Origin: a virus
Taxonomy: Duplodnaviria > Heunggongvirae > Uroviricota > Caudoviricetes
DNA: 6,146 nt
Reading direction: 5' to 3' (one strand)
IMG/VR virus record: IMGVR_UViG_2617270975_000012
Span: 1 to 6,146 of that record
Of the stretch, positions 1 to 6,146 are shown piece after piece; positions within the stretch are counted from its first letter, which is position 1, and the number at the start of each line of letters is the position of its first letter. Both the position numbers and the translations under genes were made by a program. The notes under the pieces are model-generated. The model searched no databases, was not told the origin of the DNA, and was given only the letters and a program-made list of their open reading frames with translations.

Positions 1-96
1 AAGGTGCACCTTACTCCGGCTCAGTTATCCATGCTTCTTGAAGGTATCAACTGGAAGCACCCGAAACGAACGGAACGCGCTGGAATCCGCATATAA
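1..96 (+). CDS. tnpB: IS66-family TnpB (orf2), C-terminal fragment; 5' end outside window
   Basis: Frame 1 is open from position 1 and translates KVHLTPAQLSMLLEGINWKHPKRTERAGIRI before TAA at 94..96. It ends 19 bp before the tnpC ATG, matching tnpA-tnpB-tnpC order. Family assignment is from recall of TnpB C-termini, not a search. Confidence 0.55.
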   Translation, partial: KVHLTPAQLSMLLEGINWKHPKRTERAGIRI

Positions 97-115
97 CCCG
101 TTGTAAAGTGAGGAT

Positions 116-1687
116 ATGGACACCTCACTTGCTCATGAGAACGCCCGCCTGCGGGCACTGTTGCAGACGCAACAGGACACCATCCGCCAGATGGCTGAAT
201 ACAACCGCCTGCTCTCACAGCGGGTGGCGGCTTATGCTTCCGAAATCAACCGGCTGAAGGCGCTGGTTGCGAAACTGCAACGTATGCAGTTCGGTAAAAG
301 CTCAGAAAAACTTCGTGCAAAAACCGAACGGCAGATACAGGAAGCACAGGAGCGAATCAGCGCACTTCAGGAAGAAATGGCGGAAACGCTGGGTGAGCAA
401 TATGACCCGGTACTGCCATCCGCCCTGCGCCAGTCTTCAGCCCGTAAACCGTTACCGGCCTCACTTCCCCGTGAAACCCGGGTTATCCGGCCGGAAGAGG
501 AATGCTGTCCTGCCTGTGGTGGTGAACTCAGTTCTCTGGGATGTGATGTGTCAGAGCAACTGGAGCTTATCAGCAGCGCCTTTAAGGTTATCGAAACACA
601 ACGTCCGAAACAGGCCTGTTGCCGGTGCGACCATATCGTGCAGGCACCAGTACCTTCAAAACCCATTGCACGCAGTTATGCCGGAGCGGGGCTTCTGGCC
701 CATGTTGTCACCGGGAAATATGCAGACCATCTGCCGTTATACCGCCAGTCAGAAATATACCGTCGTCAGGGAGTGGAGCTGAGCCGTGCCACACTGGGGC
801 GCTGGACAGGTGCTGTTGCTGAACTGCTGGAGCCGCTGTATGACGTCCTGCGCCAGTATGTGCTGATGCCCGGTAAAGTCCATGCTGATGATATCCCCGT
901 CCCGGTCCAGGAGCCGGGCAGCGGTAAAACCCGGACAGCCCGGCTGTGGGTCTACGTCCGTGATGACCGTAACGCCGGTTCACAGATGCCCCCGGCGGTC
1001 TGGTTCGCGTACAGTCCGGACCGGAAAGGTATCCATCCACAAAATCACCTGGCCGGTTACAGCGGTGTGCTTCAGGCCGATGCTTACGGTGGTTACCGGG
1101 CGTTATACGAATCCGGCAGAATAACGGAAGCCGCGTGTATGGCTCATGCCCGGAGAAAAATCCACGATGTGCATGCAAGAGCGCCCACCTACATCACCAC
1201 GGAAGCCCTGCAGCGTATCGGTGAACTGTATGCCATCGAGGCAGAGGTCCGGGGCTGTTCAGCAGAACAGCGTCTGGCGGCAAGAAAAGCCAGAGCCGCG
1301 CCACTGATGCAGTCACTGTATGACTGGATACAGCAACAGATGAAAACACTGTCGCGTCACTCAGATACGGCAAAAGCGTTCGCATACCTGCTGAAACAGT
1401 GGGATGCACTGAACGTGTACTGCAGTAATGGCTGGGTGGAAATCGACAACAACATCGCAGAGAACGCCTTACGGGGAGTGGCCGTAGGCCGGAAAAACTG
1501 GATGTTCGCGGGTTCCAACAGCGGTGGTGAACATGCGGCGGTGTTGTACTCGCTGATCGGCACATGCCGTCTGAACAATGTGGAGCCAGAAAAGTGGCTG
1601 CGTTACGTCATTGAACATATCCAGGACTGGCCGGCAAACCGGGTACGCGATCTGTTGCCCTGGAAAGTTGATCTGAGCTCTCAGTAA
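116..1687 (+). CDS. tnpC: IS66-family transposase TnpC (orf3), 523 aa
   Basis: Full-length ORF. N-terminal heptad-rich coiled coil/leucine zipper (aa ~8-90), CxxC...CxC zinc-finger-like motif (EECCPACGG...QACCRCDH, aa 130-171), and DDE-type core candidates ([26 protein letters not shown]). First in-frame ATG after a stop at 104..106; GAGG at 110..113. Confidence 0.93.
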
Positions 1688-1690
1688 ATA

Positions 1691-1717
1691 TCAATACGGT
1701 TCTGACGAGTCGCTTAC
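1691..1717 (+). repeat. IS66-family terminal inverted repeat (tnpC-proximal end)
   Basis: Last ~27 bp of the repeated block, directly after the tnpC stop; ends ...CGCTTAC (complement GTAAGCG). Repeat identity stops exactly at 1717. IR length is an estimate. Confidence 0.6.
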
Positions 1718-1723
1718 GGAGGA

Positions 1724-2074
1724 ATGGCAATATCTGCAGGTCGTCTGACACAGATGATAAGTGTTCTGAAGCCGGTGTTAACCCGTAATGCTGCCGGAGA
1801 AATGACGGAAGAATGGGTGTCATGCGGGAAAATTCATGCGGATATCCGTGGCAGGAGCAGCCGGGAGCGGATGCAGTCCGGTGCGGAAATGGCGCAGGCG
1901 GAAATCCGCATCTGGGTGCGCGGTCAGTCCGGCCGGGAAATCACGGCAGCGTCACGACTTCATGTGCTGAGTGGTCCATGGCGTGACCGGATCCTGAACG
2001 TTGTCGGGCTGCCCGTGCCGGATGCGACCGGCGGGCGTCTGGAAATTCTCTGTCGGCTGGGAGGGGAAAAATGA
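1724..2074 (+). CDS. Phage head-tail adaptor / head closure (stopper) protein, Phage_H_T_join-like, 116 aa
   Basis: N-terminal M..AGRL motif, central AQAEIRIWVR block and C-terminal LEILCR are typical of head-tail joining proteins. Size and position, directly upstream of an HK97-gp10-like gene, fit. GGAGG at 1718..1722 is only 1 nt from the ATG; in-frame stop at 1703..1705 prevents upstream extension. Confidence 0.72.
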   Translation: MAISAGRLTQMISVLKPVLTRNAAGEMTEEWVSCGKIHADIRGRSSRERMQSGAEMAQAEIRIWVRGQSGREITAASRLHVLSGPWRDRILNVVGLPVPDATGGRLEILCRLGGEK

Positions 2075-2517
2075 TCGAAACCCTGCTGGATTTTTCGGGG
2101 CTGGAGGACATCAGCCGCGATTTGCAGCTTCTGAGTGGTGCGGAAAATAACCGGGTGCTGCGTGAGGCAACCCGTGCGGGTGCGAATGTGCTGAAAGAAG
2201 AAGTGGTGTCACGGGCACCGGTACGCAGGGGAAAACTGCGCCGCAATGTGGTGGTCCTTTCCCGGCGCTCCCGCGATGGCGGGATGGAATCCGGTGTGCA
2301 TATCCGGGGTGTTAATCCGGACACCGGTAACAGCGATAACACCATGAAGGCGGATAACCCGCGCAATGCTTTCTACTGGCGGTTTGTGGAAATGGGGACC
2401 GTGAATATGCCACCGCACCCGTTTGTGCGCCCGGCATTTGATGTGCGCAGTGAACAGGCGGCACAGGTGGCGATTGCGCGGATGAACCGGGCCATTGATG
2501 AGGTACTGAGACGATGA
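2071..2517 (+). CDS. HK97 gp10-family phage tail component (tail completion / neck protein), 148 aa
   Basis: RAPVRRGKLRR and FVEMGT..MPP.PFVRPAFD motifs match the HK97-gp10 family signature. Start overlaps the upstream stop (ATGA at 2071..2074). Confidence 0.78.
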   Translation: MIETLLDFSGLEDISRDLQLLSGAENNRVLREATRAGANVLKEEVVSRAPVRRGKLRRNVVVLSRRSRDGGMESGVHIRGVNPDTGNSDNTMKADNPRNAFYWRFVEMGTVNMPPHPFVRPAFDVRSEQAAQVAIARMNRAIDEVLRR

Positions 2518-2858
2518 CGGAGGCGGATTTGTATCCTCATCTGGCGCATCTTGCCGGCGGGCAGGTGTACCCGTATGTGGTCCCCCTGCTGGATGGCAGG
2601 CCGTCGGTGGCGCTTCCGTGGGTGGTTTTCAGCCTGATTTCATCGGTGTCTGCGGACGTGATGGGCGGGCAGGCGGAGTCCTCAGTGTCGGTGCAGATCG
2701 ACGTTTATGCCGGGACTGTGACGCAGGCGCGTCAGATACGTCAGGACGCCCGTGAAGCCATAATGCTGCTGGCCCCGGGATCCGTCAGTGAAATGCAGGA
2801 CTATATTCCGGAAAACCGCTGTTACCGTGCAACCCTGGAGTTTCAGGTCACGGTGTGA
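2514..2858 (+). CDS. DUF3168-like phage tail terminator / tail completion protein, 114 aa
   Basis: LYPHL...VYPYVVP...PWVVFSLIS...VQIDVY...AREAI pattern resembles DUF3168 proteins found between gp10-like and major tail genes. ATGA overlap with the upstream gene at 2514..2517. Confidence 0.62.
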   Translation: MTEADLYPHLAHLAGGQVYPYVVPLLDGRPSVALPWVVFSLISSVSADVMGGQAESSVSVQIDVYAGTVTQARQIRQDAREAIMLLAPGSVSEMQDYIPENRCYRATLEFQVTV

Positions 2859-2876
2859 CTTTTTCTTTTTTTCTAC

Positions 2877-2908
2877 AAAACCCATACCCCGCCGCGTGCG
2901 GGTTTTTT
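2877..2908 (+). terminator. Putative intrinsic terminator/attenuator between the tail terminator and major tail protein genes
   Basis: A-tract 2877..2880, GC stem CCCGC (2888..2892) / GCGGG (2898..2902) with 5-nt loop, then TTTTTT at 2903..2908. Preceded by a weaker hairpin GTCAC-GGT-GTGAC (2847..2859) plus a T-rich run (2860..2873). Confidence 0.45.
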
Positions 2909-2914
2909 ATTATC

Positions 2915-2920
2915 AGGAGG
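2915..2920 (+). promoter_or_regulatory. Shine-Dalgarno (AGGAGG) of the major tail protein gene
   Basis: Perfect AGGAGG 4 nt upstream of the ATG at 2925. Confidence 0.6.
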
Positions 2921-2924
2921 CAGA

Positions 2925-3641
2925 ATGTCTGCTTTGTATGAACGCTCACAGCTGACGCAGGTGATGATTTCATCTGCCCCGGCGACTGCTGAAACTATGG
3001 ATAAGGCGGAATATCTGCGCCTGGACTGCACCATCAAGGAAGTCCAGTTCACCGCCGGTCAGAAACAGGATATTGATGTGACCACGCTCTGCTCCACAGA
3101 GCAGGAGAACATCAACGGTCTGGGGGCGTCGTCTGAGATTTCCATGTCGGGTAATTTTTATCTGAATCAGGCCCAGAACGCCCTGCGTGATGCCTATGAC
3201 AATGACGCGTTGTATGCGTTTAAGGTGCTGTTTCCGTCCGGTAAGGGCTTTAAGTTCCTGGCGGAAGTGCGTCAGCACACCTGGTCATCCGGTACCAACG
3301 GCGTGGTGGCAGCAACGTTTTCACTGCGTATGAAAGGCAAACCGGTGTCCTTTGTGGTACCGCTGGCGTTTGTGAAAAATCTGGATAAAACACTTACCGT
3401 GAATACAGGTGCGCTGCTGACAATGTCAGTCAGTGCCAACGGGGGAACGCCGCCGTATAAATACGCCTGGAAGAAGGATGGTCAGCCGGTTGACGGGCAG
3501 ACGACAGACACCTTCAGTAAGCCAGGTGCGCAGTCCGCTGATGCGGGGAAATATACCTGCGTGGTGACCGATTCGGCAGAGAAAGCACAGAGTGTGACGT
3601 CTGTTGAATGCACCGTGACAGTGAGCGCAGCCGCCGGATAA
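2925..3641 (+). CDS. Phage major tail (tube) protein with C-terminal Ig-like domain, 238 aa
   Basis: Position after the adaptor/gp10/terminator genes and before the chaperone pair; strong SD. C-terminal ~85 aa (nt ~3370..3638) has Ig-fold-like features (alternating beta pattern, W, Y.C in GKYTCVVTD), as commonly appended to siphovirus tail tube proteins. Confidence 0.72.
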   Translation: MSALYERSQLTQVMISSAPATAETMDKAEYLRLDCTIKEVQFTAGQKQDIDVTTLCSTEQENINGLGASSEISMSGNFYLNQAQNALRDAYDNDALYAFKVLFPSGKGFKFLAEVRQHTWSSGTNGVVAATFSLRMKGKPVSFVVPLAFVKNLDKTLTVNTGALLTMSVSANGGTPPYKYAWKKDGQPVDGQTTDTFSKPGAQSADAGKYTCVVTDSAEKAQSVTSVECTVTVSAAAG

Positions 3642-3655
3642 GGGGATGGGTCATC

Positions 3656-4030
3656 ATGAAAAAGGATCTGAAAACGCTGGCGCTGGCCAGACTGTCAGGG
3701 TTTCGTCATAAAACGGTGAAGGTGCCGGAATGGGGTAATGTCAGCGTGGTGCTGCGGGAGCCTTCGGCAGAGGCCTGGTATCTGTGGCAGGAAGTGCTCA
3801 ATGGTGATGGAGAGGATGACGATACCCTGTCGGTGGTGGCGAAAACCCGCCGTAACCTGGAAGCGGATGTGACGCTGTTCTGCGATGTCCTGTGTGATAC
3901 TGACCTGCAACGGGTGTTCACTCCGGACGACCGTGAGCAGGTGCTGGCCGTCTATGGTCCGGTACATGCCCGGTTGCTGCGTCAGGCACTGGAACTGATC
4001 GCTGATGCAGAGTCGGCCAGAAAAAAGTAG
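3656..4030 (+). CDS. Tail assembly chaperone (lambda gpG-like), 124 aa
   Basis: Start chosen at ATG 3656 (GGGGA at 3642..3646), not the ORF-track start 3608, which overlaps the major tail gene. Acidic small protein immediately after the major tail gene, ending in a slippery site followed by a -1-frame ORF, the hallmark G/GT arrangement. Confidence 0.7.
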   Translation: MKKDLKTLALARLSGFRHKTVKVPEWGNVSVVLREPSAEAWYLWQEVLNGDGEDDDTLSVVAKTRRNLEADVTLFCDVLCDTDLQRVFTPDDREQVLAVYGPVHARLLRQALELIADAESARKK

Positions 4031-4335
4031 CCCGCCCGGAAATTCGCTTTCTGATGCGACTTGCGCTCCGTCTGGGGCGCACCTTATCCGAACTGCGGCA
4101 CAGCCTGAGTGCGAGCGAGGCGATGATGTGGATGGAGTTTGACAGGGTGTCCCCGCTGGGTGATGAGCGCGGGGATATCCGTAATGCACAGATCGTGAAA
4201 GCGGTTTTCGGGGCACAGGGGATGAATGTTGCACTGAAGGACGCCATGCTCTGCTGGGGCGAGGATGAGGATAAGCCGGAGGTGGATCCGTTTGCGGCGC
4301 TGGAAGACGCGCTGAGCTTTGCAGCACAGTCATGA
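3656..4335 (+). CDS. Tail assembly chaperone G-T fusion via -1 frameshift (join 3656..4027, 4027..4335), about 226 aa
   Basis: The -1 frame after the slippery site is continuous with ORF-track 4054..4335 (MRLALRLGRTLSELRHSL..., gpT-like). Conserved G/GT frameshift arrangement of long-tailed phages. Confidence 0.62.
4021..4027 (+). other. Programmed -1 ribosomal frameshift slippery heptamer A_AAA_AAG
   Basis: Zero-frame codons AGA AAA AAG TAG at 4019..4030. The -1 frame from 4027 reads GTA GCC CGC CCG GAA ATT CGC TTT CTG ATG... with no stop through 4335. Confidence 0.65.
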
Positions 4336-4343
4336 ATGATGAG

Positions 4344-4364
4344 AACCGCTGAGGCGGTTTTTTT
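4344..4364 (+). terminator. Terminator-like hairpin downstream of the T segment
   Basis: Stem AACCGC (4344..4349) / GCGGTT (4354..4359), loop TGAG, T-run 4358..4364. Lies 9 bp after the G-T stop at 4333..4335. Confidence 0.4.
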
Positions 4365-4382
4365 ACGCCCGGAGAAAGGTGA

Positions 4383-4433
4383 ATGGCGACGTTACGTGAA
4401 CTGATTATCAAAATTTCGGCAAATTCACAGTAA
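4383..4433 (+). pseudogene. Truncated 5' end of a probable tail tape-measure gene (16 codons), interrupted by the IS66 terminus
   Basis: GGAGA at 4371..4375, ATG at 4383, MATLRELIIKISANSQ, then in-frame TAA at 4431..4433 supplied by the IS terminus starting at 4430. Identity as tape measure is inferred from position after G/GT only. Confidence 0.4.
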
Positions 4434-4456
4434 GCGACTCGTCAGAACCGTATTGA
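4430..4456 (-). repeat. IS66-family terminal inverted repeat (tnpC-proximal end) of the second copy
   Basis: Mirror of 1691..1717; GTAAGCG at 4430..4436. Confidence 0.6.
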
Positions 4457-4459
4457 TAT

Positions 4460-6031
4460 TTACTGAGAGCTCAGATCAACTTTCCAGGGCAACAGATCGC
4501 GTACCCGGTTTGCCGGCCAGTCCTGGATATGTTCAATGACGTAACGCAGCCACTTTTCTGGCTCCACATTGTTCAGACGGCATGTGCCGATCAGCGAGTA
4601 CAACACCGCCGCATGTTCACCACCGCTGTTGGAACCCGCGAACATCCAGTTTTTCCGGCCTACGGCCACTCCCCGTAAGGCGTTCTCTGCGATGTTGTTG
4701 TCGATTTCCACCCAGCCATTACTGCAGTACACGTTCAGTGCATCCCACTGTTTCAGCAGGTATGCGAACGCTTTTGCCGTATCTGAGTGACGCGACAGTG
4801 TTTTCATCTGTTGCTGTATCCAGTCATACAGTGACTGCATCAGTGGCGCGGCTCTGGCTTTTCTTGCCGCCAGACGCTGTTCTGCTGAACAGCCCCGGAC
4901 CTCTGCCTCGATGGCATACAGTTCACCGATACGCTGCAGGGCTTCCGTGGTGATGTAGGTGGGCGCTCTTGCATGCACATCGTGGATTTTTCTCCGGGCA
5001 TGAGCCATACACGCGGCTTCCGTTATTCTGCCGGATTCGTATAACGCCCGGTAACCACCGTAAGCATCGGCCTGAAGCACACCGCTGTAACCGGCCAGGT
5101 GATTTTGTGGATGGATACCTTTCCGGTCCGGACTGTACGCGAACCAGACCGCCGGGGGCATCTGTGAACCGGCGTTACGGTCATCACGGACGTAGACCCA
5201 CAGCCGGGCTGTCCGGGTTTTACCGCTGCCCGGCTCCTGGACCGGGACGGGGATATCATCAGCATGGACTTTACCGGGCATCAGCACATACTGGCGCAGG
5301 ACGTCATACAGCGGCTCCAGCAGTTCAGCAACAGCACCTGTCCAGCGCCCCAGTGTGGCACGGCTCAGCTCCACTCCCTGACGACGGTATATTTCTGACT
5401 GGCGGTATAACGGCAGATGGTCTGCATATTTCCCGGTGACAACATGGGCCAGAAGCCCCGCTCCGGCATAACTGCGTGCAATGGGTTTTGAAGGTACTGG
5501 TGCCTGCACGATATGGTCGCACCGGCAACAGGCCTGTTTCGGACGTTGTGTTTCGATAACCTTAAAGGCGCTGCTGATAAGCTCCAGTTGCTCTGACACA
5601 TCACATCCCAGAGAACTGAGTTCACCACCACAGGCAGGACAGCATTCCTCTTCCGGCCGGATAACCCGGGTTTCACGGGGAAGTGAGGCCGGTAACGGTT
5701 TACGGGCTGAAGACTGGCGCAGGGCGGATGGCAGTACCGGGTCATATTGCTCACCCAGCGTTTCCGCCATTTCTTCCTGAAGTGCGCTGATTCGCTCCTG
5801 TGCTTCCTGTATCTGCCGTTCGGTTTTTGCACGAAGTTTTTCTGAGCTTTTACCGAACTGCATACGTTGCAGTTTCGCAACCAGCGCCTTCAGCCGGTTG
5901 ATTTCGGAAGCATAAGCCGCCACCCGCTGTGAGAGCAGGCGGTTGTATTCAGCCATCTGGCGGATGGTGTCCTGTTGCGTCTGCAACAGTGCCCGCAGGC
6001 GGGCGTTCTCATGAGCAAGTGAGGTGTCCAT
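4460..6031 (-). CDS. tnpC: IS66-family transposase TnpC (orf3), 523 aa, second copy
   Basis: ORF translation is identical to 116..1687. Confidence 0.93.
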
Positions 6032-6050
6032 ATCCTCACTTTACAACGGG

Positions 6051-6146
6051 TTATATGCGGATTCCAGCGCGTTCCGTTCGTTTCGGGTGCTTCCAGTTGA
6101 TACCTTCAAGAAGCATGGATAACTGAGCCGGAGTAAGGTGCACCTT
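6051..6146 (-). CDS. tnpB: IS66-family TnpB (orf2), C-terminal fragment, second copy; 5' end outside window
   Basis: Mirror of 1..96. Confidence 0.55.
   Translation of the reverse strand, partial: KVHLTPAQLSMLLEGINWKHPKRTERAGIRI

Follow-up and report, generated by a model that had tools for sequence, protein, structure and literature searches.

The stretch of DNA analyzed here (6,146 nucleotides in all, termed the window) consists of a block of phage genes enclosed by two inverted portions of one and the same insertion sequence. The central block (positions 1718-4429, plus strand, 2,712 nt) is a piece of a lambdoid morphogenesis module of the long-tailed Stx-phage type, which extends from the head-closure gene into the tape measure gene as far as codon 16, and all of its genes lie on the plus strand. 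The first of these encodes a head closure (head completion) protein (1724-2074; Pfam Phage_HCP, 6e-18), which carries the same annotation in the related prophage of NZ_CP145657.1. It is followed by genes for an HK97 gp10-like morphogenesis protein (2071-2517; Pfam HK97-gp10_like), a gp17-like tail completion protein (2514-2858; Pfam Tail_completion_gp17) and a major tail (tube) protein (2925-3641), the latter being annotated as the major tail subunit in the NZ_CP145657.1 prophage. The major tail protein has a C-terminal Ig-like domain, for which the Pfam models Ig_3, Ig_2 and I-set scored over their cut-offs, and the models Phage_TTP_11 and Phage_tail_2 scored just under theirs.

Downstream of the major tail gene are the tail assembly chaperone gene G (3656-4030; Pfam Phage_TAC_1, 1e-61) and the T part of the G-T frameshift chaperone (4054-4335; Pfam Phage_tail_T, 5e-19). 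A -1 slippery heptamer, A AAA AAG, could be read from the sequence at the 3' end of G (4021-4027, plus strand), and the T ORF follows 27 nt further on in the -1 frame, which corresponds to the conserved G/GT arrangement. An earlier, sequence-only reading of this DNA had placed the tape measure gene in such a G/GT context, and the two chaperone domains together with the heptamer bear this out.

GC-rich hairpins followed by T-runs were observed at 4344-4366, between T and the tape measure start, and at 2888-2911, between the gp17-like and major tail genes. The former is also seen in the intact relative described below, in which the block holding both hairpins is identical; since the intact relative carries them, both are phage-derived and unrelated to the insertion event. 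The hairpin at 4344-4359 was not flagged in a consensus terminator scan of the window.

On its left the block is bounded by the right-hand 1,717 nt of an ISCro1 element of the IS66 family (1-1717, plus strand), which starts at IS coordinate 983 and ends at 1717 with the IRR terminus ...GAGTCGCTTAC. This portion begins with the 3' end of tnpB (IS66 accessory protein; 1-96, plus strand), cut by the window edge, which aligns with the annotated tnpB end in the ISCro1 copy of E. coli 7/2 and is too short to have given a Pfam match. The whole of tnpC follows (116-1687, plus strand), encoding an IS66-family DDE transposase of 523 aa in which the DDE_Tnp_IS66 domain (4.5e-103) is accompanied by the zf-IS66, LZ_Tnp_IS66 and DDE_Tnp_IS66_C domains. 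On the right, a second, inverted ISCro1 copy (4430-6146, minus strand) is the exact reverse complement of 1-1717, with its IRR at 4430 and an identical 523-aa tnpC ORF at 4460-6031 (minus strand). The exact inverted repeat (1-1717/4430-6146) measures 1,717 nt; a repeat arm of 1,728 nt was discarded as an over-extension by the repeat search.

The assignment of these portions to ISCro1 is based on complete identity (100%) with E. coli copies that RefSeq annotates as "IS66-like element ISCro1 family". The reference copy, from E. coli 7/2, is 2,699 bp long, starts with GTAACCGGCTC, ends with the same terminus as the left-hand copy (...CGCTTAC) and lies between the two copies of an 8-bp target duplication, ACACTAAC; window positions 1-1717 are identical to its last 1,717 nt. 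Element length and duplication size agree with those of a published ISCro1 insertion (2,699 bp and 8 bp, respectively; PMC12115866), and terminal repeats of the form GTAAGCG... have been reported for the IS66 family (PMC12888890). Imperfect terminal repeats starting with GTAA(G/C)CG were found accordingly, as the IRR GTAAGCGACTCG in the window and the IRL GTAACCGGCTCA in the reference copy. The window retains the last 96 nt of tnpB and the whole of tnpC, where the identical reference copy has tnpA, tnpB and tnpC, and each window copy represents the right-hand 64% of ISCro1, cut at the same coordinate (983 of 2,699). Many E. coli genomes contain several copies of the element, the number of matching places per genome having a median of 2 and reaching 33.

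The feature of main concern is a short ORF that opens at 4383, directly downstream of the G/T chaperone pair, which is the position of the tape measure gene in the annotated relatives. Preceded by ggagaaaggtga, in which a candidate Shine-Dalgarno (SD) motif, GGAG (4371-4374), lies 8 nt 5' of the ATG, it reads ATG GCG ACG TTA CGT GAA CTG ATT ATC AAA ATT TCG GCA AAT TCA CAG TAA and encodes the 16-aa product MATLRELIIKISANSQ. The IS terminus (GTAAGCG..., the complement of which ends at 1717) starts at position 4430, and the coding sequence is broken after nucleotide 47, with the in-frame stop (4431-4433) directly after the break. The truncated tape measure gene on the plus strand (4383-4433) is composed of 16 codons and a TAA that is completed by the IS terminus. 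The placement of the SD and ATG, and of the IS terminus at 4430, had been given exactly in the sequence-only reading.

An ORF of 16 codons is statistically meaningless on its own, and this one acquires its meaning through homology, because the 2,712 nt that end at 4429 are identical to an intact prophage. Positions 1718-4429 match 6787-9498 of NZ_CP145657.1, the chromosome of E. coli S1-IND-01-A, at 100% identity. The operon in that chromosome proceeds from the terminase, capsid, portal, connector and head closure genes through gp10, gp17, the major tail gene, G and T to the tape measure gene, and then to M, L, K, I and J. The CDS annotated there as "phage tail tape measure protein" begins at the equivalent of 4383 and encodes 1,080 aa, with the Pfam domains Phage_HK97_TLTM (7e-90), TMP_3 (1e-57) and Tape_meas_lam_C (5e-18). 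The DNA is thus identical up to the break, and the ATG of the stump is the annotated tape measure start. The comparison with intact related prophages, which had been proposed as a check, gave a clear answer in that the NZ_CP145657.1 prophage runs straight through the break into a full tape measure gene.

The comparison was extended to 11 loci, comprising NZ_CP145657.1 and ten others fetched via the head-closure protein. The tape measure-position products in the ten further loci were mostly of 1,079-1,088 aa, a few being broken. A mismatch between the 16 residues and the N-terminus of tape measure proteins had been named as one finding that would overturn the truncation; the same 16 residues form the N-terminus of the tape measure-position ORF in all of the loci fetched (11 of 11). 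Several related prophages of complete genomes thus have broken tape measure genes of their own, in the form of products of 448 and 620 aa, of 1,006 and 76 aa, of four pieces and of 872 aa; at least some of these may reflect assembly frameshifts rather than real decay.

The block is common. More than 1,200 complete E. coli genomes and 92 phage records carry the 2.7-kb block with at least 80% of the query covered, the phage records being mostly Stx1a- and Stx2c-converting phages together with phage YYZ-2008. Its identity to the prophages of many E. coli genomes and to the Stx1a/Stx2c-converting phages is at least 99%, and in every match listed the alignment ends at window position 4431, on reaching the IS.

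Across the break, the intact gene reads ...TCA CAG TCA TTC CAG TCG..., encoding MATLRELIIKISANSQSFQSEIQRAS..., and G4430 and T4431 are identical in the ISCro1 terminus and in the uninterrupted phage gene. Since both bases are common to the two sequences, strict IS specificity is confined to the AA of the stop codon. The description of the TAA as IS-derived therefore needs qualification: the stop does lie at the IS, and its T is shared with the intact gene. None of TMP_3, Phage_HK97_TLTM and Tape_meas_lam_C is present in the 16-codon stump, and the first domain of the intact protein begins at residue 83; because the ORF ends before any tape measure domain, it is a gene fragment and not a functional member of the family. 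Taken together, positions 4383-4433 very probably represent the 5' end of a lambdoid tape measure gene that was cut by ISCro1, and the original contention that an IS truncates this gene after 16 codons is upheld by the coincidence of the break with the ISCro1 terminus and of the ATG with the first codon of the 1,080-aa tape measure CDS of a prophage of 100% identity; no observation spoke against the truncation as such.

The left junction (1717|1718) is intergenic. The intact phage has here the TGA of the head-tail connector gene and then GGAG|GGAGGAATGGCA; in the window, the IS terminus is joined at the bar, at a distance of 4 nt from the connector stop and of 6 nt from the ATG of the head-closure gene, and the SD GGAGGA is kept. 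Both ends of the block abut the same IS end (IRR), and the two copies are oppositely oriented. Since both joins fall exactly on the IS terminus, each is taken to be a genuine transposition junction and not a chimeric one. An origin of the break from a fold-back or chimeric artefact was rejected, as both breaks lie exactly on the terminus defined by the duplication-flanked reference copy. The left-hand IS probably uncouples the block from late-operon transcription through the head genes, i.e., it is likely to be polar.

The two-junction structure is that of a single sequence. With a 91-nt query for each junction, no place in 5,426 complete E. coli genomes reached a query coverage of at least 80%, and neither junction was found as an exact string in the GTDB representative genomes or the JGI metagenomes; in IMG/VR, the exact string of the right junction alone was searched and not found. 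Among 72,556 plasmids and 50,697 phage records, only intact phage modules or separate IS matches were detected, with no join of IS and block. When the head-closure protein was looked up by exact match, the longest contigs showed nothing but intact prophage contexts, and the sole ORF of at least 30 aa to span a junction (1608-1823, minus strand) had no record in the exact-protein look-up. Since the junctions were not found in the collections searched, the insertion appears to be strain-specific, and its exact junction could serve as a strain-specific marker.

The host element would be an E. coli prophage of the lambdoid type that combines a head-completion module resembling that of HK97 with a tail resembling that of lambda, the same module as in the long-tailed Stx1a/Stx2c-converting phages. 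In the proposed course of events, an ISCro1 element (2,699 bp) would have transposed into its tape measure gene, with the IRR joined after coding nucleotide 47, and the terminus GTAAGCG would both regenerate codon 16 (CAG) and supply the in-frame TAA. Owing to this stop, the intact SD and ATG could yield only a 16-residue peptide, and the gene would be inactivated. A second, identical ISCro1 in the opposite orientation would have joined via its IRR 6 nt upstream of the head-closure ATG, leaving the 2.7-kb block of head-completion, tail-tube and chaperone genes bracketed by two inverted IS copies.

The tape measure protein (of the lambda gpH type) is essential for siphovirus tails, which in its absence are neither initiated nor measured. 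On this ground the prophage copy is presumed to be tail-defective in cis. The previous assertion that the tail module cannot make a complete tail can be kept in this form, i.e., as a defect in cis deduced from what is known of gpH-type proteins. The further point, that the window shows no distal tail genes after the stump, is correct and carries no weight, since the window ends inside both IS copies and the absence of flanking phage genes is uninformative.

The window as such is compatible alike with two simple insertions, with a local or intramolecular hop, and with an IS-mediated rearrangement that left an isolated remnant. An inversion of the block by recombination between the IS copies would be invisible, because the same contig would result. 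Two simple insertions of ISCro1, or else a local hop, would most likely account for this structure, and the remaining prophage would then lie beyond the IS copies. In one comparable case, that of E. coli TB354 (NZ_AP038814.1, locus 7026-9724), an ISCro1 with one mismatch in 2,699 nt lies between the tail genes L and K and is flanked by a 9-nt direct repeat, AGTAAATCC, versus 8 nt at the E. coli 7/2 copy. By analogy with TB354, where the tail genes continue past ISCro1, the rest of the tape measure gene may lie about 1 kb past the window end. If two simple insertions took place, the outer junctions ...GTGTTATGAGGAGGGAGGAAT|GTAACCGGCTC and ...GAGCCGGTTAC|AATTCACAGTCATTCCAGTCGG are to be expected in an otherwise complete prophage. 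With the 8-bp direct repeat that would then surround each copy (GGAGGAAT and AATTCACA, respectively), the left outer junction would read ...GTGTTATGAGGAG GGAGGAAT|GTAACCGGCTCATTTAAACC and the right outer junction ...GGTTTAAATGAGCCGGTTAC|AATTCACA GTCATTCCAGTCGGAGATCC, followed by the rest of the 1,080-codon gene.

The alternative that retains most weight, though the odds are clearly against it, is that the 2.7-kb block is all that is left of the prophage at this locus, the head genes and the other tail genes having been removed or relocated by IS-mediated deletion, inversion or recombination with ISCro1 copies elsewhere; this would be the strong form of the cryptic remnant proposed in the sequence-only reading. 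Two IS copies do bracket the block, with no other phage DNA visible in the window; homologous recombination and deletions between copies of ISCro1 have been described (PMC12115866); and many E. coli genomes have several matching places (median 2, up to 33). However, the missing flanking genes are uninformative in a window that ends inside the IS copies, and in the one comparable case inspected (TB354) the insertion is a simple one, with the phage continuing on the other side.

The ends of the window also bear on the integrity of the sequence. With both of them cut at IS coordinate 983, the stretch as a whole resembles a short-read contig, which suggests either that the window is a repeat-bounded contig or that it was set by the repeat itself. 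On this basis the two junctions could originate from different near-identical prophage copies or subpopulations that were threaded together through the shared 2.7-kb repeat during assembly, and E. coli strains often harbor several prophages that share this module at 99% identity or more (three such loci were found in one genome). This explanation is nevertheless improbable, as each junction coincides exactly with the canonical IS terminus, whereas chimeric joins would not. Moreover, each junction being a genuine transposition product, the truncation at 4430 stands whichever molecule bears the left junction.

Joint movement or flipping of the two inverted ISCro1 copies with the phage genes between them, in the manner of a composite transposon or invertible cassette, is remote in the extreme. 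An inverted pair of IS copies whose like ends point inward around a cargo does recall the geometry of Tn5 and Tn10, but neither junction was found elsewhere in the collections searched, so the unit has not been seen to move. The cargo is colinear, on its inner side, with the phage context from which it comes, and no selectable function is evident for it. Even when the product of a one-step intramolecular IS66-family transposition is counted alongside the composite transposon, a mobile or invertible cassette of some kind is still a very improbable account of the bracketed block. The transposition mechanism of the IS66 family is poorly defined, and a one-step intramolecular event, if true, would bear on it.

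With insertion of ISCro1 into the tape measure gene as the preferred reading, the significance of the locus is principally one of annotation. The prophage copy is best described as tail-defective, with a tape measure pseudogene interrupted by ISCro1, and the 16-codon ORF should not be listed as a gene. Inactivation of a prophage structural gene by an IS is a textbook type of event. Judged by sequence identity, all components are known at 99-100% (ISCro1 and a common E. coli lambdoid tail module), and only the particular junction seems to be unrecorded. The locus is one more case of the well-documented erosion of E. coli lambdoid prophages by IS elements, of little import beyond annotation.

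In comparison with its closest known counterparts in long-tailed lambdoid E. coli prophages and Stx-converting phages, for example the NZ_CP145657.1 prophage, the Stx1a-converting phage Stx1_14744 (LC567821.1) and Enterobacteria phage YYZ-2008, the truncated gene shares the position after G and T, the SD, the ATG, the first 47 nt and the 16 codons, and the upstream 2.7 kb of these phages are 99-100% identical to the window. In contrast, their tape measure ORFs extend for 1,079-1,088 codons and include TMP_3, Phage_HK97_TLTM and Tape_meas_lam_C, whereas that of the window is limited to 16 codons. With respect to ISCro1 itself, the likeness consists of 1,717 nt at 100% identity, the IRR terminus and the TnpC domain set; the full element comprises tnpA-tnpB-tnpC, an IRL and an 8-bp duplication, while the window copies end before tnpA, the IRL and the duplications.

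The TB354 prophage resembles the window in having the same IS inside a lambdoid tail module, but its insertion is single and intergenic with the phage continuing on both sides, whereas that of the window is intragenic and the window ends inside the IS. Another ISCro1 match was observed to adjoin a phage tail fibre gene, and ISCro1 recurs in prophage tail regions.

A tail defect in cis of the kind proposed here need not render the element inert. Among the lambdoid prophages of E. coli O157 Sakai, defects include frameshifts, deletions and IS insertions, the last of these in nu1 of Sp4 for example, and some of the defective Sakai prophages can still be packaged and transferred when sibling prophages assist (PMC2669165). 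Defective prophages can in this manner be complemented by, or recombine with, their siblings (PMC2669165). As in Sp4, an IS would here inactivate a lambdoid prophage gene that is essential for morphogenesis or packaging; the Sakai case, however, involves nu1 and a different IS, in contrast to the window, in which ISCro1 interrupts the tape measure gene and two inverted copies bracket 2.7 kb.
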